From Promethearchaeota archaeon (GTDB lineage Archaea; Asgardarchaeota; Odinarchaeia; Odinarchaeales; JBHLKK01): a DNA stretch of 64,000 nt. The stretch covers positions 23,562-87,561 of the forward strand of contig JBHLPL010000001.1 in NCBI GenBank assembly GCA_048939465.1. The letters run 5' to 3'. The translations under genes were made by a program, and so were the position numbers. Positions within the stretch are counted from its first letter, which is position 1. Each line of letters starts with the position of its first letter. The notes beneath the pieces were generated by a model that saw only the letters and a program-made list of their open reading frames with translations, was not told where the DNA came from and made no database searches. Positions 5,831-46,264 of the stretch are shown here, piece by piece.

Positions 5831-6349
5831 TTAAGTCTTTTTCCTATATTCGAGCATCCTCCTAGTTATCGCCTTAAATGCTCCATTAACGTTCTTCCCT
5901 GTCTTGGCACTAGTTTCCGTGTATCCGTTACCAGTTGTCTTTGCATTCTGCCTCGCTTTTCGCGTAGATACCTTTCTCCGGTTTGTAAGATCTGTCTTGT
6001 TTCCTATGGTAACCACTGGCACTTTTCCTGCATACTCCTGCATTTCCTGCATCCATTCAGAAAGCGTCTCAAAAGTCGTTGGCCGAGTTACATCATAGAC
6101 AAGTAATGCTCCAGAGGCCCCCTCATAAAAGCCCTTTCTTATTATCTTAAAACGCTCTTGACCGGCAATGTCCCAGATTGTTAATTTGGTCTCGCAATCT
6201 CCTAGACGGATCTGTTTGGTGAAAAGATCCACACCTAGGGTCGGCTTATATTTGTGCCTAAAGCGATTTTCAACGTATTTCAGTGTCAACGTAGTTTTGC
6301 CAACAGAACCATCGCCGATTAGCAGCAGTTTTAAGTTGTACTTCTCCAT
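5831..6349 (-). CDS. Rab-like Ras-superfamily small GTPase (tandem paralog)
   Basis: G1 GDGSVGKTTL; YKPTLGVDLF; WDIAGQERF; GNKTDL; ETSAKTG. Confidence 0.8.
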   Translation of the reverse strand: MEKYNLKLLLIGDGSVGKTTLTLKYVENRFRHKYKPTLGVDLFTKQIRLGDCETKLTIWDIAGQERFKIIRKGFYEGASGALLVYDVTRPTTFETLSEWMQEMQEYAGKVPVVTIGNKTDLTNRRKVSTRKARQNAKTTGNGYTETSAKTGKNVNGAFKAITRRMLEYRKKT

Positions 6350-16574: not shown

Positions 16575-17837
16575 TTGCGTAAGATTTATAACTTATCTGT
16601 ATTTAGGAATTGGAAAAAGTCTTCATCCAATAATGGCCCGCAACTTCGGCCGCAAAGGCGGGGCAAGATAAGGTGTCTGCCGTTGAAAGCCCGAAAATCA
16701 TGGAATGATGCGGCACTTATACTTGAAGACGGGACTGCTTTTGTAGGGCAGGGATTTGGCTCCCAAAAAAAGGTAACAGGTGAGGTTGTTTTCAATACCG
16801 GGATGGTTGGGTATCCTGAGTCAATTACCGATCCGTCTTACTATGGACAAATCCTCACTTTGACATATCCCCTGATTGGAAATTATGGAGTACCTTCTTT
16901 TGGTGAAACGGAGCACGGAATACCCAGATTCTTCGAATCAGATTCTGTGAAGGTTAGAGGGCTTGTCGTCCACGAGCACTGTTATCTGCCGAGCCACTGG
17001 TCTTCCACTAGAACCTTAGATCAATGGTTGAAAAACGAGGGTGTGCCGGCCATCATGAATGTTGATACCCGCAAACTCACAAAAAGACTGCGTGAACACG
17101 GCGTAATGCTGGGTATTCTACAGGTGTGTAGCGAAGAAGAAAAAATCGATATATCTGGGCTTCGTGAAGAGGCAAGAAATATCGAAAATCCCAACAAGAG
17201 GAATCTTGCCGGAGAAGTTGCAACAGACAAACCAATTACTTATGATTGTCACGGTAAAGGAACAGTTCTAATTCTGGATTGTGGCGTAAAGTACAACATC
17301 CTGAGAAGTTTTTTGAAAAGAAATCTGAATGTTGTTCGGGTTCCTTATAATACCTCAATCTCAGAGATACTTGATTATCAACCGAATGGCGTTGTAATCA
17401 GCAATGGACCCGGCGACCCCAAGAGGATTCCGAGTATTACTCAGACTGTTACTGAAATAATTGGAGAAGCTCTTCCTCTTCTTGGAATCTGTCTTGGAAC
17501 TCAGATTCTGTCACTTGCCTGCGGTGGGGATACCTACAAACTGAAGTATGGCCACCGCTCTCAGAATCAGCCAAGTATGAACCTAGAAACTGGTCGCTGT
17601 TTTATTACAAGCCAAAATCACGGCTATGCTGTTGATCCGACTTCTTTGAAAGAGACAGATCTGGAAATCTGGTTTGTTAATGCAAATGATAAGACCATAG
17701 AAGGGATTAAACACAAAAGGGTCAATGCATTCGCAGTTCAGTTTCATCCTGAACATGCACCCGGACCTGTTGATACTGAATATATATTCTGGCAATTTAT
17801 CAAAGCCATGGGGGGTCAAAAGTCTGCCCAGATTTGA
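16575..17837 (+). CDS. carA: carbamoyl-phosphate synthase small (glutaminase) subunit
   Basis: ALILEDGTAFVGQGFG N-terminal CarA motif; GATase catalytic Cys in GICLGTQIL; His in FHPEH; true start probably downstream of 16575 (conserved core begins near aa 45). Confidence 0.85.
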   Translation: MRKIYNLSVFRNWKKSSSNNGPQLRPQRRGKIRCLPLKARKSWNDAALILEDGTAFVGQGFGSQKKVTGEVVFNTGMVGYPESITDPSYYGQILTLTYPLIGNYGVPSFGETEHGIPRFFESDSVKVRGLVVHEHCYLPSHWSSTRTLDQWLKNEGVPAIMNVDTRKLTKRLREHGVMLGILQVCSEEEKIDISGLREEARNIENPNKRNLAGEVATDKPITYDCHGKGTVLILDCGVKYNILRSFLKRNLNVVRVPYNTSISEILDYQPNGVVISNGPGDPKRIPSITQTVTEIIGEALPLLGICLGTQILSLACGGDTYKLKYGHRSQNQPSMNLETGRCFITSQNHGYAVDPTSLKETDLEIWFVNANDKTIEGIKHKRVNAFAVQFHPEHAPGPVDTEYIFWQFIKAMGGQKSAQI

Positions 17838-21139: not shown

Positions 21140-21646
21140 TTATAGGTGTTGAAAACCATCGAGTAACTCTCTGGATTGCTCCTTGAAATCCTCCAAATCT
21201 CTATCGACGATTTCGTGGGATTCCAGCTCTTTTGCCTTCTCTATCTCTTTTCCTATGGCTTCATTGAGCGTAGGAGCGGCCATGGGTGCTTCTTCTTTGG
21301 CAAATGCTTTGGCAAACACAAGCGATTTGAGCCTGCCATAAGCATACTTCCTAAACTCATCTTCCTTCCTCTTTGATAGCCAGGCCCGTCCCAGATACGC
21401 GACGGTGTTTGCCGCTCCCGATATCCCCTCAAATTTCTCAGCTTGTATCAAAGCAAGGCCGGATAATCCCTTATCTTCAATACCAATAAGCACTGGTCGT
21501 TCCGAGGTCCTCAATATGGCAATTGATGACGCGAAACCAAATAGATCTATGTACTCAATTTCGTAACCTACGCCTCTCCGGCGCAACATGCGTATAGCAT
21601 CTTCGAAGTTTTCGGGCTTTTCAGACATCTTCCTCTCAACTAGCAA
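21140..21646 (-). CDS. hypothetical protein (downstream of gelsolin-domain gene, same strand)
   Basis: 168 aa ORF, no recognised motif. Confidence 0.35.
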   Translation of the reverse strand: MLVERKMSEKPENFEDAIRMLRRRGVGYEIEYIDLFGFASSIAILRTSERPVLIGIEDKGLSGLALIQAEKFEGISGAANTVAYLGRAWLSKRKEDEFRKYAYGRLKSLVFAKAFAKEEAPMAAPTLNEAIGKEIEKAKELESHEIVDRDLEDFKEQSRELLDGFQHL

Positions 21647-21686
21647 TTCAAAATTCTGTTAATTGATACTCCAAATCTCGTTTGAA

Positions 21687-22541
21687 TTAGTTCGTGGGTA
21701 AGTTCTTGGCCACTTCGACGAATATCTTTTGAATTCTTATCTTCTTTTCCTCGCCGCCAAAAGTTGATTCGGGAGATATGATCAACTTTGAACCATCTAC
21801 CCTAAACTTGCATACTGTACCATCGGGCGCTTCCAGTTCATATTCTTCGCTTTCTTTTGCTGATCGACAATTCACATATAGCTCGGGGTATTCTTTCATC
21901 ACGCTTGTGATTAGGATACCTGTTTTGATACTGCCCAAAACGTCGCTTAAACTCTCCTTGGGGGCCGAAGGAGTCTCGCTCGCATTACTCACTTGGCTCA
22001 TTATCTCTTGGGGAGTTATTTTCAAGACCGCTGGTGTTGATGGTTCAGGCTGTACGTTCACATCAACTTCCGGGGAAGCTTGCGGTTCAGGAGGTTGAGG
22101 AGCAGGCTGAATTATTGTTTCAACTTCAGGCAAGCCCACAGGTTTGGCAGCAATAGCCTTATCTCCAAAAGAGACAAGGAATTTGCCAACAGGTGAAAAA
22201 TCCGACTGTACCAATCTCTTCAGTTTTTCGTATTTCTCCTTCATATCGGATTCTCCCAAGAGACTTTCCTCGATAACCTCTAGTGTCTTAATGCCTTTGC
22301 CTACAAGGATATTCTGAACCTCGTATCCGAATCGTTTGATAGAATTAGCAATCCGACTTGCTGCTCTTTTCCGGACAAAACTGATCTGCTGGCCGATCCA
22401 AAGCCAGACCACCTCATTCGGCTCATCAATTACAACTACCACATTTTCTCCCTTTAGACTTTCCTCGGAAAATGGTATCAGTACACTTTCTCCACTCTCA
22501 TCTAAGCTGAGCATCAGACTGTATCTTGATATCTTTGACAT
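21687..22541 (-). CDS. gelsolin-domain protein (gelsolin/villin fold N-terminal, Pro-rich linker, C-terminal extension)
   Basis: N-terminal ~90 aa VVVVIDEPNEVVWLWIGQQISFVRKRAASRIANSIKRFGY matches the gelsolin repeat pattern (hydrophobic strand-D-x-G-x-hydrophobic-W-x-G-x-x-S..E/K..A); followed by PQPPEPQ linker. Confidence 0.5.
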   Translation of the reverse strand: MSKISRYSLMLSLDESGESVLIPFSEESLKGENVVVVIDEPNEVVWLWIGQQISFVRKRAASRIANSIKRFGYEVQNILVGKGIKTLEVIEESLLGESDMKEKYEKLKRLVQSDFSPVGKFLVSFGDKAIAAKPVGLPEVETIIQPAPQPPEPQASPEVDVNVQPEPSTPAVLKITPQEIMSQVSNASETPSAPKESLSDVLGSIKTGILITSVMKEYPELYVNCRSAKESEEYELEAPDGTVCKFRVDGSKLIISPESTFGGEEKKIRIQKIFVEVAKNLPTN

Positions 22542-22632
22542 ATTAATTCACCAATCCATCCGCAAGGAAGCCCACAATTTCAGTCGTGATTTCTTGACTA
22601 ATTAACTTTTTCTACATTTTCGCTATAAAATG

Positions 22633-24399
22633 TTAAGATTGTTTTTTCTTTCTTAGCTTCATTTTATACATTTGTGTTATCTCCTCTTCGGTTGTAGCAT
22701 CTTCAGGGGCCTTATCTTGACGCCAATTGCCGGTAAACCTTGGAAATCTTATGGCAAGCCCGCTTCCTTTTGCTACTTTATCAAAACCGCATGTGTGAGT
22801 TGGACTCAATGTGATCTCAGCCCCTTTCACTTCTAACACTGAGTTGGGCACGAACCAAACATCTGCATCCTGCTGCGAATTAACTCGGGAATGTATATGA
22901 TCTATCTTGTATTTTCTTAACTTTGATGGTAATGCCTCGAGTTCCTCGTCACTGAATCCGCTTCCAACTCTTGCTACAGTCTTAAAAACATCGTTCTCCG
23001 GGTCGTAACATGCAAGCAGTAATGCTCCATAGGTTCCAGCCCTTCTTCCACGACCCATGAAAGCACCAACAACCACTAAATCAACAGTATCTGCCAGTTC
23101 ACTTATGGCTTCTCTTTTGAACTTTATCCAAAGCCAGCCTCTGGCACCCGCTTGATATATGGAATCGGGATTAATTGATTTTGCCATTAGACCTTCACAG
23201 CCTGCTTCAACAGCCTCATCAAAGAAATCTTCCAGATCTTTCGGAGATTCCACGGTCCTCTGGTTCGCGATTCTGATCCTCTTATTGCCTTTCACAATTC
23301 TTATTAGCTCCTCTCTTCTCCTGGGGTATGGCTCCTTAATTAAATCCTTTCCATTGATCAGAAGGCTATCAAAAAGGAATAAGCTTACGGGATACTCTTC
23401 CATAGCCCTTTTTACTTCGTATTTTCTTCTCCTATGCATGAGTTCTTGAAATGGTCTGAACTCATCCGTATCCAAATCAATTGCAACAACCTCACCCTCA
23501 ATGATTGCCTCCCTAGCCTTTATGTTACTACGGATTAAGGCGACTATATCGGGGTATTGTTGAGTAATATTCTCAAGTCTCCTTGAAAAAATCCTTATAA
23601 TATTCTCCTTCTTATGTATTTGAAGCCTTTCGCCGTCGTATTTGTATTCTGCTGCAAGCCTTCCTCCCAACTTCTCCAATATCCCCTCAGGATCTGTAAG
23701 TCTCTGAGCAGCCATCATACGGATTGGTTTACCTACCTCTATTGAGAACTTCTTTATGGCTTTGATTCCTTCCTTTGCCAATGCTTTTGCCACATATCCC
23801 AGGTCAGAACTCAGGTTATATGCTTCTTCGATTGGAGGACGATTCTCTTTGCCTCCGGCAAAGGCTTGAGCCAAAGTGTCTAGTATGGTCATATCGGCTA
23901 TTCCAAGTCTGAGCGTCCCTGTTACGGTCCTTGCCAAGAATTTTGCCTCAATGGGCCTGGCGCTAAGCAGCAATCCTGAGAAGAGTCTCTTCTTCAACCC
24001 GACAGAACCTGCCCCGCTCGCGGCAGCAATCTTATCTAGTCTATTATAGACCTCATCAATAGTCAAGGGTTTAGCAAGAAGAGATCTCTGTTTTTTCTCT
24101 CTCGTTTCATATTCGGCAGTTAACCCTATGTCACCCATTTTCAATAGGGTCTTTTCTATGTGGCTATTCCTAACTCCGACTGCGATTGATATGGCATCAA
24201 CGACCATTTTTTCGGCCATGCCTATTTCGGGCAGCCCCATCCAGTCTGGATGCAGTTTTCCTTGCGTAAGATAAATAACCTTGTCTATGATTTGTATGGG
24301 AGTCTTCTCAAACAAGTCCGTTAGCAAATCAATCATTTCTAGTCTTTTTGATGTGTCCTCAATCTTTGAGTAGTATTCACACAAAGTCTCATATCTCAT
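22633..24399 (-). CDS. lig: ATP-dependent DNA ligase
   Basis: 588 aa; adenylation motif I EYKYDGERLQIH (KxDG); archaeal/eukaryal Lig architecture. Confidence 0.9.
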   Translation of the reverse strand: MRYETLCEYYSKIEDTSKRLEMIDLLTDLFEKTPIQIIDKVIYLTQGKLHPDWMGLPEIGMAEKMVVDAISIAVGVRNSHIEKTLLKMGDIGLTAEYETREKKQRSLLAKPLTIDEVYNRLDKIAAASGAGSVGLKKRLFSGLLLSARPIEAKFLARTVTGTLRLGIADMTILDTLAQAFAGGKENRPPIEEAYNLSSDLGYVAKALAKEGIKAIKKFSIEVGKPIRMMAAQRLTDPEGILEKLGGRLAAEYKYDGERLQIHKKENIIRIFSRRLENITQQYPDIVALIRSNIKAREAIIEGEVVAIDLDTDEFRPFQELMHRRRKYEVKRAMEEYPVSLFLFDSLLINGKDLIKEPYPRRREELIRIVKGNKRIRIANQRTVESPKDLEDFFDEAVEAGCEGLMAKSINPDSIYQAGARGWLWIKFKREAISELADTVDLVVVGAFMGRGRRAGTYGALLLACYDPENDVFKTVARVGSGFSDEELEALPSKLRKYKIDHIHSRVNSQQDADVWFVPNSVLEVKGAEITLSPTHTCGFDKVAKGSGLAIRFPRFTGNWRQDKAPEDATTEEEITQMYKMKLRKKKQS

Positions 24400-32336: not shown

Positions 32337-32744
32337 TCAAATGATCTTATTAATCTCTCTTGCGGCCCTGTCAGCTGCAATATATGCTGTTTGTGGAGAG
32401 CCTTGGCTTGTAATATAGCACATAAATAGTGCTTTTTGTCCTACGGCCGCAACAACTAAGTGCCCCATACCTTTCATGTTGGTTGCAATGAACCTATCTT
32501 GAGTAGCATTGATTGTTGAATACTTTATGCCCTGAACTACAACACTGGGCGTTTTGTTTGTAAAAGCTGAAACAATATCGGGTCCTTGAACTGTCCAGTT
32601 TTGTGTTTGGTGGATTATTCCCCCATTCATGCCAACTAATGCTGTGGCTGTTATGTTTGGATCAGACTGCATCAGGTTACTAGATATAGACGCAACATCT
32701 GCCATTATTATACCTCCGAGACCTTTCAGCTGTTTCGTTCTCAA
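32337..32744 (-). CDS. profilin
   Basis: 135 aa; alignable block-by-block to eukaryotic profilin: ATALVGMNGGIIHQTQNW ~ AAAIVGHDGSVWAQSASF; VVVQGIKYSTINATQDRFIATNMKGMGHLVVAAVGQKALFMCY ~ [42 protein letters not shown]; C-terminal helix. Confidence 0.6.
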   Translation of the reverse strand: MRTKQLKGLGGIIMADVASISSNLMQSDPNITATALVGMNGGIIHQTQNWTVQGPDIVSAFTNKTPSVVVQGIKYSTINATQDRFIATNMKGMGHLVVAAVGQKALFMCYITSQGSPQTAYIAADRAAREINKII

Positions 32745-32777
32745 TTGAATATAATCTCTCTTTAGTCATTTAAGTTT

Positions 32778-33245
32778 TTGGCAAGTTGCAAAGGGGTAAA
32801 ATATTGTTTGGCCAACAGTCCTTCTGAGAAGTTCAATCTGCCGAATAACTTACAAAATGGAAAGACATGTTCCGTGAGACTTATAAGAAACCAGGAAACA
32901 GATTGCTCAACGAGGGCAGCTATCTTGCAGGAAAGTCAGGAGATTGAAAAACGAGAAGAAGAGAAAACAAGTCCAATATCGGTACTTTCTTTTATTCTCT
33001 TCTGCGCCGTTGTAGTCTATCTGCTTCAAGCTCAGTATATTGGATTATTCCCTTTCCGACCATTAGATTTTCCTGACCGAGGCACCATGTTGATCTCCCC
33101 ATCTGGTCTCTATCTGATATATTGGGTCGGCATGATGGGATTGCTTTTGGGGCTTTATAGGGAAACAAAGGATAAACTGCTTCTCGGAGTGGTATTCTTC
33201 TTTGCGTCTCTGATATTCCTTTTCATCCTAATCTCCACATTATGA
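32778..33245 (+). CDS. hypothetical small membrane protein (start uncertain)
   Basis: C-terminal half has 3 hydrophobic helices; N-terminal part may be untranslated. Confidence 0.3.
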   Translation: MASCKGVKYCLANSPSEKFNLPNNLQNGKTCSVRLIRNQETDCSTRAAILQESQEIEKREEEKTSPISVLSFILFCAVVVYLLQAQYIGLFPFRPLDFPDRGTMLISPSGLYLIYWVGMMGLLLGLYRETKDKLLLGVVFFFASLIFLFILISTL

Positions 33246-33316
33246 CAGCTGAAGCTGATAATAACGCAACCTTAAAACGTTAGGCCTTATTAGTAAAAAG
33301 ACGGGATGGATAAAAC

Positions 33317-34276
33317 ATGACTCTTGAAGAAATGATCCTCAAGAAAAGATTGAAATATATTCTGTTTGGAGGAAAAGGCGGTGTGGGGAAAACAACCGCT
33401 GCTGCTGCGTGCTCAGTATGGGCCGCTCAACAAGGAAGAGAGACACTCATAATAAGCACCGATCCTGCACATAGCTTATCGGACAGCCTAGCTCAGGATC
33501 TAAGTGGCGGAGACATCAAAGAAGTTCGAGGGGTACCTGATCTTTATGGATTGGAGGTGAATCCTCAAAAGGAGTTCTCAAAATATCAAAAAAGCCTTGA
33601 GTCGGCTTCTGATTCTTCTGAAATCGCAGGTATCCCGGGTTCTGAATTACTTGAGGATTTGGGAGGACTTACCCCACCAGGTGCAGATGAGGCCCTAGCA
33701 TTTGCAAAAGTGCTAGAATTCATCGAAAAAAGTGAGCACGACCTCATCATATTTGATACAGCACCCACGGGTCACACCCTGCGCCTACTGAGTCTGCCCG
33801 ACCTCCTGAATAGCTTCTTTGGCAAACTTCTCACTTTTAGGCTCAGGCTGTCCAGAGTCTGGGGAAGGATTAAGAGACTCTTTGGCCGAGGGGAGGAAGA
33901 GGAGGACAGGACTCTTGAGACTTTAGAAAGACTTAAAACCACCATTGATGCGGCTGGCAAAGAACTCAAGGACGAAACGAAGACAAACTTCGTCATAGTC
34001 ATGATTCCCGAACTCATGGCTATCTATGAGACTGAGAGGCTGCTTTCGGCATTGTACGAATACGAGATTCCTGCAAGTTTTATTCTTGTAAATATGGTCT
34101 ATCCAGATATACCAGATTGTTGGTTCTGTAAGTCCAGAAAATCGATGCAGGATAAACATCTGAAGGAGATTAGAGAACTTTACGACGAGTTTACGATCAT
34201 AGAGATTCCCTTGGCTGAAACAGAGATTCGAGGAATAGAAGGATTAGAAAGGATCGGCAAAATCCTTTTCATCTAA
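33317..34276 (+). CDS. Get3/ArsA-family ATPase (tail-anchored-protein targeting factor homolog)
   Basis: P-loop GGKGGVGKTT; A-loop/switch DTAPTGHTLRLL; conserved CxxC pair (DIPDCWFCKSR) characteristic of Get3 dimer zinc site; single ATPase domain (319 aa). Confidence 0.8.
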   Translation: MTLEEMILKKRLKYILFGGKGGVGKTTAAAACSVWAAQQGRETLIISTDPAHSLSDSLAQDLSGGDIKEVRGVPDLYGLEVNPQKEFSKYQKSLESASDSSEIAGIPGSELLEDLGGLTPPGADEALAFAKVLEFIEKSEHDLIIFDTAPTGHTLRLLSLPDLLNSFFGKLLTFRLRLSRVWGRIKRLFGRGEEEEDRTLETLERLKTTIDAAGKELKDETKTNFVIVMIPELMAIYETERLLSALYEYEIPASFILVNMVYPDIPDCWFCKSRKSMQDKHLKEIRELYDEFTIIEIPLAETEIRGIEGLERIGKILFI

Positions 34277-34301
34277 TTTACTCTTTGAAAGGGGATGTGA
34301 A

Positions 34302-34712
34302 TTGACTGTATACACTAAATCGTTTGAAGTCAAGACAAAGAACCGTATAGAATGGGTTGACATCACAGAAAGCATCAGAGATATTGTTAAGAGTTCAAAT
34401 ATTCTGAATGGGACTGTCGCTATCTTCACAAAACACACGACCACAGGGATCACGATTAATGAGCATGAAAGCGGCCTACTCCATGATTTACGCTCCAAAC
34501 TTTCCGAACTCATTCCACGAGGAGCTGGTTATCTCCATGACAGGGTCGATGACAATGCTGACTCTCATCTTAAGTGTTCGATACTGGGAAATTCGGCAAG
34601 TGTACCTTTGGTTGACGGGTCCCCCGCCCTAGGTACGTGGCAATCTGTCCTATTTGGAGAGTTTGATGGGCCAAGAACTCGAACTGTTTTGGTCGTTGTT
34701 TCTGGAGATTAA
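34302..34712 (+). CDS. YjbQ/UPF0047 family protein (secondary thiamine-phosphate synthase-like)
   Basis: 136 aa; WVDITESIRDIV, TKHTTTGITINEHESGLLHDL, HLKCSILGNSASVPLVDG match UPF0047. Confidence 0.7.
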   Translation: MTVYTKSFEVKTKNRIEWVDITESIRDIVKSSNILNGTVAIFTKHTTTGITINEHESGLLHDLRSKLSELIPRGAGYLHDRVDDNADSHLKCSILGNSASVPLVDGSPALGTWQSVLFGEFDGPRTRTVLVVVSGD

Positions 34713-36078: not shown

Positions 36079-36864
36079 ATGAAGTGTCCCCGATGCGATT
36101 ATGAGATTTCAGCAGATCAATTAACATGCCCGCAATGTGGTTTTAGAATGACGATTGAAAAACTTGAACGCGTAATTCCCTTGCTTAGACGCCCCGTTAG
36201 AACAACTGTAGAACCGTTATCTACCCTGCAGAGACTGAAAGGGACGTTCATTTCTCCAGCTTTGACCTTCTGGAACATTTCCAAAATCCCTGACAAAAAG
36301 GGATTCTTGTTCATTTTATTCTTCAATGCACTCCTTATTTCTCTCAATTACCCCATCTTATGGACGCACATAAATGTAATAGGATCTGAAACCTTCGTCG
36401 GAATTGTAAGTCTCCACATATGGGGGAGCTTTATTGGCTTGTTTCTATCTGGCCTTGGCATATTATTGCTCGCGTGGATTCTGATCGTTTTTGCATTCTG
36501 GACAATCTCCAGAGTGACTGGAGGAAAAGGATCATATCGAGCAACCTTTCTGGTCACAAGCTATGCCTTTGCCCCTCTTATAATCGCAAGGTTAATTTCT
36601 CTGGTTGTCTTGGCAGGTGGACTCCCAAGCGTTACCATTACCGAAGCCATGGCTCCTGGAGAATTGGGCACAGCACTGATACCTTTACTCAATTCTGTAG
36701 TCTGGACTTATTCCCTTGGTGTTGAGACTTTCTTTTGGCTTTGGTCTGCACTGCTTTCTTCATTGGCAATAAGAGAAACTCAGAATACGTCAACTCTCAA
36801 AGCGGTAGTAATGGCTTACGCTGTTATCATATGCTCTCTACTAATACTTTGGACAATTCATTGA
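36079..36864 (+). CDS. zinc-ribbon-containing polytopic membrane protein (possibly Yip1-like)
   Basis: N-terminal CPRCDYEISADQLTCPQCGF zinc ribbon followed by ~5 TM helices; family assignment tentative. Confidence 0.35.
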   Translation: MKCPRCDYEISADQLTCPQCGFRMTIEKLERVIPLLRRPVRTTVEPLSTLQRLKGTFISPALTFWNISKIPDKKGFLFILFFNALLISLNYPILWTHINVIGSETFVGIVSLHIWGSFIGLFLSGLGILLLAWILIVFAFWTISRVTGGKGSYRATFLVTSYAFAPLIIARLISLVVLAGGLPSVTITEAMAPGELGTALIPLLNSVVWTYSLGVETFFWLWSALLSSLAIRETQNTSTLKAVVMAYAVIICSLLILWTIH

Positions 36865-36931
36865 AGATAGGTCTGGGAACTGGCTTGGTCCATATTTGAA
36901 AGTCCTGTAATCTCTGAAGGGCTCAAGTAGG

Positions 36932-37954
36932 TCATCGGATCATCACTATGAGTTTGATGGGACTGGCCAGATTCTTATCATTAACAAAAATGAGATCTCC
37001 TTCTTTCACTCCGGTATCTTTCAATACGATGCTATCCGGGACAATCTTGCCCTCGATAATAATCTCAGGATTCTGAAGGCCATAGGTCATTATCAGCCTG
37101 TTTTTTAATTCTTGAATGGGTTCTTCCAGGTTCACGACATATTTGACGCCTACGGTGCGGTACTTAGGACTGCAAACAACACAGCTCGGATTACGGACAA
37201 GCCTAATCTTTGTAAAAGACTGGCTCAATCCATCGTAAAATAGATAGTTGTCAAGCAGATCCTTGCGTTCTAAAATAATCTTTAGCGTTTCTTGTGCTTG
37301 GATTCCTCCGACTACTGTAGTTGTTGTGGAAATCATTGGAAATTTCTCCTTCTCTTGCTCTTTCTCTTTTCGCGCCTCTCCAGGAAGAGTACAGGCCTTC
37401 TGTAATCTTTCTTTTGGTATCAATGGTTGGCATTCCAGGCAGGGCGTTTCAAAGGGGATGATTACCTGAACGTTCCCCCACCAGCCAAATAATCCTCCAT
37501 GAATTAGAGGCTTATTCAAGTGAACACACATGGAATTCAGCCATCTGCGTGCCTCAAAAGTATCTAAGCCTTCCACGATGACCGAACTTCTCTGGTAGAC
37601 TTCTTTATCTATCGACCGCATATCCTTCATATAGGTACTTACCTTGACTTCCGGATTGAGTTTCTCAAGGAATTCCTCAGCAGCCTCCACTTTCAATCTT
37701 CCAATATCTTCTTCTCTGAAAAGTATTTGTCGGTTCAAATTCGAAAGCTCAATTGTGTCGTTGTCTATAAGAATCAACTTTCCTATTCCCATCAACGCCA
37801 GATCAAGAGCAACTACCGAGCCTAAAGCCCCCACTCCTACGACCAAAACCGTTGAATTGCGAATCAATCCTTGGTCCCATTCTTCGAGAAGTTCCTGTCT
37901 ATGATAACGACCTTCTCCTTCTTTCAAGCCTGCCCCCTCCTGAGGTGTTTCCAA
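36932..37954 (-). CDS. ubiquitin-activating E1-like enzyme (ThiF/MoeB/UBA family) with C-terminal beta-grasp-like extension
   Basis: Rossmann nucleotide motif VLVVGVGALGSVVALDLALMGIGKLILIDNDTIELSNLNRQ; catalytic region; two CxxC zinc pairs (TPCLECQ, PSCVVCSP); ~90-aa C-terminal extra domain. Confidence 0.8.
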   Translation of the reverse strand: METPQEGAGLKEGEGRYHRQELLEEWDQGLIRNSTVLVVGVGALGSVVALDLALMGIGKLILIDNDTIELSNLNRQILFREEDIGRLKVEAAEEFLEKLNPEVKVSTYMKDMRSIDKEVYQRSSVIVEGLDTFEARRWLNSMCVHLNKPLIHGGLFGWWGNVQVIIPFETPCLECQPLIPKERLQKACTLPGEARKEKEQEKEKFPMISTTTTVVGGIQAQETLKIILERKDLLDNYLFYDGLSQSFTKIRLVRNPSCVVCSPKYRTVGVKYVVNLEEPIQELKNRLIMTYGLQNPEIIIEGKIVPDSIVLKDTGVKEGDLIFVNDKNLASPIKLIVMIR

Positions 37955-38364
37955 GTAGCATACCTTTTGATATACTCTTTTACTTTCTCCTTGAATTCTC
38001 TTGGCGACTCACGCATTTCCTTTGCAGCCACTCGATTCAGAGGGTCGTGAGGGTTGGGAAAGCTCAGGACGTTTCTTATGGCCTCGATTACGCCAACTAA
38101 ATTTATGCTTGGAGACCAATCTTTCCCCAGAATGCCCAGACATATTCTTCCCTCCCTGGTGATATTTGGATGCCAAATTGGAGTCAAGAACCGAGCTTTG
38201 GGAGGTTTAAATGGATAGCTTCTGTCTACTTCTAACTCGATTTGGAAGACCCCTCCATCGTAAACACTGGTACCTAGAATGAATCCACGCCATTTTGTGA
38301 GGTCTCCACTTAGCGGTTGAAATGAAGGTTCCTCCTCCTCTATGCTCTTAGCTTCAAGTGCCAA
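37924..38364 (-). CDS. ubiquitin-conjugating enzyme E2 (UBC fold, catalytic Cys present)
   Basis: FKPPKARFLTPIWHPNITREGRICLGILGKDWSPSINL: canonical HPN motif and active-site Cys; overlaps E1 by 31 nt. Confidence 0.8.
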   Translation of the reverse strand: MALEAKSIEEEEPSFQPLSGDLTKWRGFILGTSVYDGGVFQIELEVDRSYPFKPPKARFLTPIWHPNITREGRICLGILGKDWSPSINLVGVIEAIRNVLSFPNPHDPLNRVAAKEMRESPREFKEKVKEYIKRYATWKHLRRGQA

Positions 38365-39181: not shown

Positions 39182-39913
39182 CTAACCCCCCAAAACCTCT
39201 TCAAACATATCAAGCAAAACATAGCGAGTTGAGGGATCAATGGCAACAGTTCCATAAGTTGGCACACCCAATAGTCTTCCCACAAGTTCTGGGTCCAATG
39301 AGTGGGGAAGGTCTTGTTTGTTTGCAATTGCAACAACCTTTGCATCAGGAACACGTTCTTGGACGAGGCTCATGATTCTCTTCCTGGTCCTGGCTACACT
39401 CGTTACAGACGAGTCCGTAACAACGATGATAATATCTGAGCCCCTGATCATTACGTCCCAGAATCGACCAAATCGTTCTTGTCCAGCGAAATCCCACACG
39501 ATCACTTTTACTGGCGTTTCCACCCCTTCGAGATTTTTGATATTGACCATTAGGGTAGGAGTATGGTTTATGGGAACTTCTTCATCAAAAAGCAATTTCA
39601 GCAGTGTTGTCTTGCCTGCACCGCCAAATCCCAAAAAGGAGACCTTAATGATCCTCATTAGCTGGCTTACGGAAAGTCTCATCTTACAGAAGGGACATTT
39701 ACCTTTGGTCTTAACCCATTCAAGTATTTCTCTTCTGTGAGCAATACATCCACAGTTTGGGCAGTCTATTGTCTTATCGTTAGGTCCTATTGGCAGAAGG
39801 CATACTATGCAATTCTTCGCTCCCACTTTTTCCACCCAGTCTTCCGATCTGTGGATATTGCAGAGCGTCAAATCGATTAGGAAATCCTGTCTCTCTTCAC
39901 TGGGCCACCTCAA
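39182..39913 (-). CDS. RING-like zinc finger fused to small GTPase
   Basis: N-terminal CIVCLLPIGPNDKTIDCPNCGCIAHRREILEWVKTKGKCPFCK; GTPase G1 GFGGAGKTTL, G3 WDFAGQERF, G4 ANKQDL. Confidence 0.7.
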   Translation of the reverse strand: MRWPSEERQDFLIDLTLCNIHRSEDWVEKVGAKNCIVCLLPIGPNDKTIDCPNCGCIAHRREILEWVKTKGKCPFCKMRLSVSQLMRIIKVSFLGFGGAGKTTLLKLLFDEEVPINHTPTLMVNIKNLEGVETPVKVIVWDFAGQERFGRFWDVMIRGSDIIIVVTDSSVTSVARTRKRIMSLVQERVPDAKVVAIANKQDLPHSLDPELVGRLLGVPTYGTVAIDPSTRYVLLDMFEEVLGG

Positions 39914-45100: not shown

Positions 45101-46264
45101 TTGGGATTGATGTCTGATAAGCTGTTCAAATACGCCACCCAGATGGCGAAGGAAGCTGTGAAACTTGACAAGCAAGGCAAACAGAAGCTGGCTGTACAGA
45201 AATATATTCATGCGGCCGATATCTTGATGAGGTTTCTGAAATTAACCGAGAATCCCGCACTGAGAAAAGTATGTTATGAAAAGGCGGAGCAGTATGTGCA
45301 AAGAGCTAAAGAACTACAAGGTGTAACACCAGGTCTGCCGGCAGTATCAGAAAAAGCAGCGGGGAAAGCGCTGACCAAGGAAGATCAAGCCCTCCAAGAA
45401 GCAATCTCGGATACCATAATCACTGAGAAACCAAGTGTTGAATGGGAAGACGTAGCAAATCTAGAGACGGCAAAACAAGCCTTGAGAGAGGCTGTTATCT
45501 TACCGATGCTCAGACCAGATATTTTTACTGGTGCAAGGGAACCTTGGCGTGGATTATTGTTGATCGGACCACCCGGATGTGGAAAAACACTGCTCGCAAA
45601 AGCTGTGGCGAACGAATGCAACGCAACATTCTTCAGCGCTGACGCAGCCTCTTTGGTTTCAAAGTGGCTGGGAGAATCGGAAAAACTTGTAAGCACATTA
45701 TTTACCGTTGCACGAAGTAGCTCCCCTTCCGTTGTGTTCATCGACGAAGTGGATGCTTTGGCAACAGTTAGATCGGGTGATGAGGTTGGAGGTGAGCGGA
45801 GAATGAAGACGCAGCTATTAATAGAAATGGATGGGGTTCGAAAACGAAAGGGAGAGCAAGTAGTAGTTCTTGGCGCCACGAACAGGCCATGGGATCTTGA
45901 CCCGGGTTTTCGTAGAAGGTTCGAAAAAAGAATTTATGTGCCCCTTCCTGATAAGGAAGGCCGTCGCGAGATATTTAAGATTCACGTCAGAGGAATTGAA
46001 ATAGCTTCAGATGTTGATTTTGATGAACTAGCGACTCTTACTGAGGGATACTCCGGCTCAGATATTGCGCTGATATGTAGGGATGCTGCCATGATGCCAA
46101 TACGTGAACTGGATACCGCAGGCACGTTGACTAGGAAAGATATCAAAGTTCGATCGGTAGATCGTGAGGATTTTCTGAAGTCCATGAAAAAGGTTAGGCC
46201 AACTGTTTCACCAGACGAACTGGAGAAATACGAGGAATGGACCAAAGAATTCGCATCAGAATGA
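45101..46264 (+). CDS. vps4: Vps4-like AAA ATPase (N-terminal MIT domain)
   Basis: MIT-like three-helix N-terminus (LDKQGKQKLAVQKYIHAADILMRFLKL...AEQYVQRAKELQ); AAA Walker A GPPGCGKTLLAKAVA; Walker B VVFIDEVD; second region of homology. Confidence 0.85.
   Translation: MGLMSDKLFKYATQMAKEAVKLDKQGKQKLAVQKYIHAADILMRFLKLTENPALRKVCYEKAEQYVQRAKELQGVTPGLPAVSEKAAGKALTKEDQALQEAISDTIITEKPSVEWEDVANLETAKQALREAVILPMLRPDIFTGAREPWRGLLLIGPPGCGKTLLAKAVANECNATFFSADAASLVSKWLGESEKLVSTLFTVARSSSPSVVFIDEVDALATVRSGDEVGGERRMKTQLLIEMDGVRKRKGEQVVVLGATNRPWDLDPGFRRRFEKRIYVPLPDKEGRREIFKIHVRGIEIASDVDFDELATLTEGYSGSDIALICRDAAMMPIRELDTAGTLTRKDIKVRSVDREDFLKSMKKVRPTVSPDELEKYEEWTKEFASE

Follow-up and report, generated by a model that had tools for sequence, protein, structure and literature searches.

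Gene A, a minus-strand gene in the 64,000-nucleotide stretch of Asgard archaeal DNA analyzed here (hereafter the window), encodes a protein whose N-terminal part is, in the predicted model, a single gelsolin-fold domain and whose layout, as modeled, is the already described 1DGelX/GelX architecture. We consider it reasonably likely that this protein is an Asgard GelX-type, calcium-independent actin regulator, that its tail acts as a second binding site, and that gene B, located just downstream, is a passenger. The A–B gene pair is not a conserved system.

Genes A and B are real genes. Both open reading frames proposed by the sequence-only reading of this DNA, 21687..22541 (284 aa) and 21140..21646 (168 aa), are present on the minus strand, and the motif that it quoted, VVVVIDEPNEVVWLWIGQQIS, corresponds to residues 34–54 of gene A. 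Compared with relatives at 74–77% identity, both genes are under purifying selection, with dN/dS values of 0.14 for gene A and 0.08–0.10 for gene B (0.08–0.09 for the neighboring ligase gene). The close homologs of gene A are 74–85% identical to it, and the homologs of both genes come from organisms named Hodarchaeota or Promethearchaeota, that is, Asgard archaea. The start codon of gene A at position 22541 is preceded, 6 nt upstream, by a conserved GGTGA, and the homologs keep the same frame. A TATA-like TTTTATAG directly behind the ligase gene is the probable promoter of gene A; compared with two related loci (L003 and L007), the window has a 41-nt insertion between this element and the gene A start codon. 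For gene B, all four homologs start at the ATG at position 21628 and a conserved Shine-Dalgarno-like GAGAGGAAG lies just upstream, so that this ATG is most likely the start and the protein most likely has 162 aa instead of the 168 aa first proposed. The sequence AGTTGAGAG(G/A)AAGATG around this start is conserved in three lineages, with no change in the length of the A–B spacer. It follows from this start that the spacer measures 58 nt, not the 40 nt given earlier. By inspection, the spacer contains neither an oligo-T run nor a TATA element, and a T8 run located 3′ of gene B is likely the archaeal terminator of an A–B transcript. A scan for stem-loop terminators found none, as expected where archaeal termination uses oligo-T. 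Since the spacer lacks terminator and TATA signals and keeps its length, and since the T8 run follows gene B, the two genes are probably co-transcribed; the previously claimed co-transcription thus stands as a probable arrangement of two same-strand genes. The features of the locus are collected in Table 1.

Table 1. Positions of genes, domains and putative signals at the gene A locus (numbering of the window).
Feature	Position	Strand	Basis
Gene A, GelX-type single-gelsolin-domain protein, 284 aa	21687..22541	-	Open reading frame, homologs, dN/dS, wider family
Gene B, lineage-specific protein, 162 aa	21140..21628	-	Four close homologs, start codon, alignment, dN/dS
N-terminal gelsolin-fold domain of gene A (predicted), about residues 7–125	22167..22523	-	D39...W48-x-G50 'DWG' pattern, conserved basic long helix
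Disordered acidic linker of gene A (predicted), about residues 126–202	21936..22166	-	pLDDT below 35, variable length, charge
C-terminal alpha-beta4-alpha domain 'X' of gene A, about residues 203–281, KA1-like predicted fold	21699..21935	-	Predicted model, alignment
Shine-Dalgarno-like GGTGA, 5′ of the gene A start codon	22548..22552	-	Sequence; invariant in L003 and L007
TATA-like TTTTATAG, directly 3′ of the ligase stop codon	22623..22630	-	AACATTTTATA invariant in the window, L003 and L007
Shine-Dalgarno-like GAGAGGAAG, directly 5′ of the gene B ATG	21629..21637	-	Sequence, conservation
T8 run, 41 nt 3′ of the gene B stop codon	21092..21099	-	Sequence
ATP-dependent DNA ligase, immediately 5′ of gene A	22633..24399	-	Pfam DNA_ligase_A_N/M/C
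Profilin, about 10 kb from gene A	32337..32744	-	Pfam PF00235, E=1.3e-6

Curated profiles did not identify the gelsolin domain. Pfam, NCBIfam and PHROGs gave no usable match for the gene A protein, Pfam Gelsolin (PF00626) giving none at E values up to 10, and the same Pfam model matched only 3 of 64 family members, weakly (best E=0.0012). A gelsolin HMM had been suggested as a check on the domain, and the standard Pfam model thus misses it; this result shows only that curated HMMs overlook the gene A family. When the single gene A sequence was searched against the PDB, the best matches were also weak (Heimdall 2DGel, E=0.064; Thor ProGel, E=0.59). An exhaustive profile search for relatives yielded 107 representatives after clustering at 50%, and a profile of 64 family sequences recovered, as its four best PDB matches, ProGel (1.9e-4), villin (8.8e-4), Loki 2DGel (5.8e-3) and Heimdall 2DGel (0.021). 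An AF2 model based on a five-sequence alignment had a pLDDT of 45 and was unusable for the N-terminal domain; with the alignment rebuilt after the profile search (34 sequences), pLDDT reached 83–92 over residues 10–125. In the resulting model a mixed beta sheet lies between two helices, one long and one short, as in the gelsolin fold, and in a Foldseek search against the PDB the best 26 matches of the predicted domain all belonged to the gelsolin family, at 14–22% identity to the solved gelsolin domains. The DWG motif (Asp, Trp, Gly) has been reported to separate gelsolin from cofilin (bioRxiv 768580). In the gene A family, position 39 is Asp in 92% of the sequences, W48 is conserved in 86% and G50 in 100%, and at the sequence level the pattern aligns with D...LWrG of ProGel. 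Predicted model, family profile and Foldseek search agree, and on this basis the N-terminal part of gene A is modeled as one gelsolin-fold domain; the single gelsolin-like repeat read from the DNA is thereby upheld, including by the AlphaFold model that was to refute it if no gelsolin/cofilin-like fold appeared.

The most conserved surface of the family is the long helix (R/K58, R59, R63, A65, K69 and G72). The type-II calcium site, formed by an acidic residue before strand B and a glutamate at the start of the helix, is absent from gene A: in an alignment with Heimdall 2DGel the helix-start glutamate lies opposite Arg57 of gene A, and positions 58 and 59 are basic in 94–95% of the family. Because Arg57 takes the place of the helix-start glutamate and is followed by these basic residues, the gene A protein is probably calcium-independent, as are ProGel and 1DGelX. 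Since ProGel lacks the type-II site too, the site is not needed for membership among gelsolin domains. A calcium-regulated gelsolin was ruled out by the basic residue in place of the helix-start glutamate.

Behind this domain lies a linker of about 75 aa with 17% proline and a pI of about 4.1, in agreement with the Pro-rich linker noted before. Its length varies between 26 and 147 aa across the family, and the segment LKITPQE (residues 173–179) is invariant among close homologs only. The motif [IV]I[KRQ]P was discarded as a conserved feature of the linker, because several lineages have it but a large clade does not. Recruitment of profilin by polyproline is not supported either, since the gene A linker contains no proline run longer than PP. 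The C-terminal domain, estimated at about 150 aa in the sequence-only reading, has a folded part of about 80 aa. Its conserved residues are K206, G208, E237 (96% of the sequences), D240–G241, K267 and I270, and its pLDDT in the gene A model is 64–74. A profile of this X domain found nothing significant in the PDB or Pfam; the matches to ribosomal uL6 (E=0.15) and Robl_LC7 (a single match, 0.054) were taken as chance. In the search with the predicted fold, the highest-ranking matches are KA1 and KA1-like domains (TUT1, 7.3; SAD-B, 7.1; Chk1, 6.6; Snf1, 6.4; Kcc4, 5.8; MARK1/3, about 5.3), with other two-layer alpha/beta folds scoring just below them for this moderate-confidence prediction. Since this list is led by KA1 and the best 60 fold matches include no gelsolin, the resemblance belongs to the tail. 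The likeness of the tail to the KA1 domains of MARK, SAD and Chk1 and to the KA1-like domains of TUT1 and METTL16 is one of predicted fold only, of moderate confidence, and we treat it as a lead: unlike these domains, the X tail shows no sequence similarity to KA1, is not attached to a kinase or RNA enzyme, lacks the N-terminal beta strand and is net acidic.

To describe the family, we sorted 151 gathered sequences with local HMMs of the N-terminal domain and of the tail. The two domains occurred together in 68 sequences, whereas 71 had the N-terminal domain only, many of these being full-length proteins with coiled-coil-like C-terminal regions and others short or fragmentary. Nine sequences, mostly fragments, matched the tail only, and the four homologs of gene B matched neither domain. 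A division of the gene A family into two subfamilies, one X-tailed and one with coiled-coil-like tails, is a lead emerging from these counts. The named members belong to Odinarchaeia, Helarchaeota, Hodarchaeota, Freyarchaeota, 'Asgardarchaeia' and Lokiarchaeota and are all annotated as hypothetical. Every named relative and all 80 genome loci of the family are Asgard (Promethearchaeota); the finer taxon labels given by submitters are unreliable, Thor and Hod labels occurring within one 90% cluster.

The 1DGelX protein has been described as a gelsolin-homology (GH) domain followed by a long linker and an X domain (PMC7444086), and B35_GelX of L. ossiferum has the same layout (bioRxiv 10.1101/2025.11.30.690169). 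Thor 1DGelX binds rabbit actin with a Kd of 7.7 uM and needs no calcium to sever filaments, and B35_GelX co-precipitates with Lokiactin at a log2 fold change of 2.28 (PMC7444086; bioRxiv 10.1101/2025.11.30.690169). According to the AF2 model and the local HMMs, the single gelsolin domain of gene A is likewise followed by a C-terminal X that is not a gelsolin domain, and the gene A family shares the restriction of 1DGelX/GelX to Asgard archaea; the architecture of gene A appears identical to that of Thor KXH72031.1 (1DGelX) and UYP44381.1 (B35_GelX). Neither accession was present in the cluster look-ups of 30 family members. By analogy, it is plausible that gene A is orthologous to these proteins, and plausible, on the strength of the shared architecture only, that their biochemistry applies to it. 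The core of the family is 22–36% identical to ProGel, compatible with the published value of 35% for Thor 1DGelX. By contrast, the X of 1DGelX/GelX was predicted in the published work to be coiled coil or disordered, whereas that of gene A models as a folded alpha-beta4-alpha domain; Thor 1DGelX might belong to the sister subfamily with coiled-coil tails. Most members of the gene A family are smaller than B35_GelX, which has 40 kDa.

Other known gelsolin-fold proteins differ more. Thorarchaeota ProGel (PDB 7C2F), a single-domain Asgard gelsolin/cofilin prototype, consists of the domain alone (94 aa), whereas gene A, about 17% identical to it, carries in addition the linker and the tail. Asgard 2DGel and eukaryotic gelsolin, villin, adseverin and fragmin have two to six repeats and are calcium-regulated, whereas gene A has one repeat, appears to carry Arg57 at the position of the type-II calcium glutamate, and has no Pfam Gelsolin match. 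The gelsolin-like domain of Sec23/Sec24 (COPII) sits in proteins of about 700 aa that also contain trunk, zinc-finger and helical domains; gene A has none of these.

The minus-strand order in the window is DNA ligase, gene A and gene B, and this block is convergent with carA–carB. The profilin that had been reported in the window is borne out both by its Pfam match and by its similarity (E=1.4e-40) to an Odin profilin that adjoins a gene A homolog. Other genes of the window code for a Ras-like GTPase, an E2 enzyme, a ThiF-type E1, a RING-Arf-like GTPase, Vps4 and a Yip1-domain protein. We then compared gene neighborhoods using one genome per GTDB species and a 10-sequence alignment, which gave 80 Asgard loci, nearly all with full-length matches. 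A ligase gene adjoins the family member in 75 of the 80 species genomes. In 73 of them it is the next gene downstream, on the same strand (median gap, 97 nt), and in two, which belong to the window's lineage, it lies immediately upstream; three of the five loci without an adjacent ligase stop at contig edges. These numbers are dominated by one clade, which accounts for 78 of the 80 loci (median ligase identity, 72%) and in which aminotransferase and LRR protein genes are syntenic as well (62/80 and 57/80). In this large clade the two genes are separated by an oligo-T terminator behind the gene A homolog and an AT-rich promoter ahead of the ligase, and in Helarchaeota the adjacent ligase is convergent with the gene A homolog; a single ligase–gene A operon was thus ruled out in both. 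Two Odinarchaeia lineages have a profilin gene directly beside the gene A homolog: one locus (L090) reads profilin, gene A homolog, convergent HhH-GPD glycosylase, oxidoreductase and ligase, and the other (L094) ligase, oxidoreductase, gene A homolog and convergent profilin. In the loci from Freya and 'Asgardarchaeia', a distance of about 4 kb around the homolog contained no ligase. At three loci, paralogs with coiled-coil tails have an Ogg glycosylase gene two or three genes away. The conserved neighbors of gene A are therefore DNA ligase and, in Odinarchaeia, profilin, and we regard the ligase linkage as a lead. Neither the ligase adjacency nor that of the Odin profilins had been noticed in the sequence-only reading.

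The arrangement of the pair in the window could mean that the gene A protein has a dedicated cofactor in gene B, as the sequence-only reading had proposed. The two genes share a strand, a spacer of conserved length without terminator or TATA element, a conserved ribosome-binding site and a T8 run behind gene B; the pair is kept in 5/5 loci of the window's lineage, and purifying selection on gene B is strong. The distribution of gene B argues against this explanation and makes it, in our judgment, very unlikely. Only four homologs were detected, all of them close (at least 73% identity), and an HMM of gene B, run against 94 loci, found it in five, each of which belongs to the window's lineage (L003, L007, L008, L010 and L011); it was not found in the other 89 fetched loci, including those of every more distant member of the gene A family, so that A and B do not co-occur across the family as a two-gene module would. 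A gene of 148 aa located 3′ of the 'Asgardarchaeia' gene A homolog is unrelated to gene B. Because the entire 10-kb block is collinear in the five loci, the linkage of A and B within them adds no information. The gene B protein consists of a basic part (residues 1–112, pI 9.2) and an acidic, helical tail (residues 113–162, pI 4.5), and it matched no family or structure in Pfam, NCBIfam, PHROG or the PDB; NUP62 (E=2), retrieved with the gene B profile from the PDB, was considered coiled-coil noise. Judged by this distribution, gene B is best described as a young, lineage-specific passenger and not as a general component of the gene A system. A different proposal concerns the tail of gene A, which might be a true KA1-type membrane-targeting module that anchors actin remodeling to acidic phospholipids. 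KA1 domains do bind acidic phospholipids, and this binding depends on basic clusters (PMC4686854). The X domains, by contrast, have a median net charge of −1 and are positive in only 11 of 56 cases; the only commonly basic positions are K206, position 225 and K267, and no basic cluster of the KA1 type was found among the 56. Considering also that none of the 56 tails matched Pfam KA1 (PF02149) at E values up to 10, that the pLDDT of the tail is modest and that other alpha/beta folds score nearly as well, we regard a membrane-targeting KA1 module as unlikely.

The ligase linkage raises a further alternative, namely that the gene A family is a DNA replication/repair accessory factor whose gelsolin-fold and KA1-like modules work with the replicative ligase. 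Besides the adjacency in the large clade, in the window's lineage and in Helarchaeota, this explanation can draw on the Odin loci, where the ligase is one or two genes away and in one case a glycosylase lies between, on the Ogg genes near the coiled-coil-tailed paralogs, on the strongly basic long helix, and on the fold matches to the KA1-like domains of TUT1 and METTL16, which were solved with U6 snRNA. However, since 78 of the 80 loci come from one clade in which unrelated genes are syntenic too, much of the count reflects inherited synteny. The terminator and promoter that separate the two genes in that clade, the varying orientation of the ligase among lineages and the lack of a nearby ligase in the Freya and 'Asgardarchaeia' loci also speak against it, as does the net acidic charge of the whole gene A protein and of its tail. 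Moreover, we know of no nucleic-acid-binding gelsolin domain. Taken together, these points make a replication/repair factor quite unlikely. A broader version, to which we give the same low probability, holds that the X tail is a folded KA1-like module and the family an ancient adaptor joining the actin system to the membrane or to replication/repair, the latter being suggested as the second system by the persistent ligase linkage and by the base-excision glycosylases in some lineages. If an adaptor to replication/repair were true, it would mean that a link between an actin regulator and genome maintenance existed in archaea before eukaryotes.

We thus favor a GelX-type actin regulator, for which the following mechanism may be envisaged. 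The ProGel-like gelsolin/cofilin-fold domain would bind actin through the conserved basic helix (residues 55–71), probably in a calcium-independent manner, and the flexible, acidic, proline-rich linker of variable length would tether it to the alpha/beta KA1-like tail. The tail would then provide a second binding site, either for the filament side or for a partner protein or surface, and thereby the avidity that a lone gelsolin domain needs for severing or capping. Gene B would be transcribed from the promoter of gene A. What the analysis itself demonstrates is the open reading frames, their purifying selection, the membership in the family, the gelsolin fold as predicted, the arrangement of domains and the gene neighborhoods; actin binding, independence from calcium, the part played by the tail and co-transcription are inferred from these. 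An actin role for gene A is in keeping with an Asgard genome that carries a profilin gene and with the Asgard origin of every named relative, and it is supported by the profilin gene that adjoins the gene A homolog in two Odin lineages. As a counterpoint, the most widely conserved neighbor is a DNA ligase gene and not a cytoskeletal one.

In the literature that we searched, we did not find a description of X as a domain that is conserved among several Asgard classes and for which a folded alpha/beta module of KA1-like shape is predicted, nor of the split between X-tailed and coiled-coil-like-tailed subfamilies, nor of the persistent linkage to DNA ligase and, in Odinarchaeia, to profilin. These three leads leave the basic picture unchanged. 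No known organisms are more closely related to eukaryotes than the Asgard archaea, whose gelsolins and profilins provide the main evidence for a regulated actin cytoskeleton before eukaryotes; gene A adds a Hodarchaeota-labeled lineage to GelX, the least understood class of gelsolins.

The gelsolin-X gene adjoins an ATP-dependent DNA ligase gene in 75 of the 80 Asgard species genomes for which gene neighbourhoods were counted, and in 73 of the 80 the ligase lies downstream in tandem, with a median gap of 97 nt. In the window's lineage the ligase also lies in tandem, upstream of the gelsolin-X gene; at the Helarchaeota locus the two genes are adjacent and convergent, and at two Odinarchaeia loci (L090 and L094) they stand one or two genes apart. 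This linkage rests on the window together with loci L012-L089, L092, L090 and L094. In the large clade, an oligo-T run and a promoter separate the gelsolin-X gene from the ligase. When we compared the leader of gene A, the gelsolin-X gene of the window, with those of its sister lineages L003 and L007, we found a 41-nt insertion in the window between the TATA-like element AACATTTTATA and the ribosome-binding site, so that the predicted 5′ leader of gene A is longer than theirs.

The linker of the encoded protein contains short conserved motifs. In gene A it carries LKITPQE (residues 173-179), which shows no variation among close relatives and is similar to the WH2-type motifs LKKT and LKDV, whereas the large clade (for example L071, L055 and L056) conserves a different motif, [AG]SEY[DE]xxEP[LM]PSIK, outside which its linker is variable and rich in Pro and Lys.

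A sister subfamily (proteins P0122, P0138 and P0128; loci L005, L006 and L009) has the same N-terminal domain, with a coiled-coil-like tail in place of the alpha/beta tail. Its genes occupy a conserved context of their own, with an Ogg-type DNA glycosylase and a PfkB kinase encoded a few genes away, and the two "1DGelX" proteins per Loki genome in published counts may correspond to the alpha/beta-tail and coiled-coil-tail subfamilies. Other architectures were also observed: the Hodarchaeota protein P0035/P0149 (525 aa) contains the N-domain type of gene A twice, and in P0088 and P0096 the tail domain is N-terminal and followed by about 150 more residues. Since P0168 and P0170 share one 90%-identity cluster, yet the MAGs that encode them bear the labels "Thorarchaeota" and "Hodarchaeota", the submitter phylum labels of these recent MAGs are unreliable.

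Coordinates of features in the window and at the Odinarchaeia loci
Feature	Position	Strand	Remark
DNA ligase	window 22633..24399	-	
TATA-like element AACATTTTATA	within window 22553..22632		directly after ligase stop; conserved in L003 and L007
Gene A linker	window 21936..22166		
Profilin, L090	3587-3955	+	upstream of family member in tandem, 45-nt gap; matches PDB 5zza_P at E=1.1e-28
Profilin, L094	4816-5181	-	convergent with family member; precomputed Pfam annotation Profilin
Profilin/ArsA-Get3/YjbQ, window	32337..34712		
Profilin/ArsA-Get3/YjbQ, Odin locus	L090:1615-3955		
carA/carB overlap	window 17725..17837		113 nt
Further eukaryote-signature genes	window 5831..6349, 36079..38364, 39182..39913, 45101..46264		

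Elsewhere, the window encodes a Ras-family GTPase, a Yip1-domain protein, a RING finger fused to an Arf/Ras-like GTPase, a Vps4 with MIT, AAA and Vps4_C domains, and a ThiF-type E1 whose gene overlaps that of an E2 (UQ_con). Taken at its longest, the carB ORF reaches back into the end of carA and opens with an atypical N-terminal extension; the real carB start probably lies downstream.

In two Odinarchaeia lineages, L090 and L094, a profilin gene lies directly beside the family member. Genes for profilin, an ArsA/Get3-type ATPase and YjbQ (UPF0047) are neighbours in the window as well as at the Odin locus L090, where the gelsolin-X and ligase genes belong to the same cluster; in the window these two lie about 10 kb from it. 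This arrangement points to an ancient neighbourhood of genes that has since been partly dispersed.
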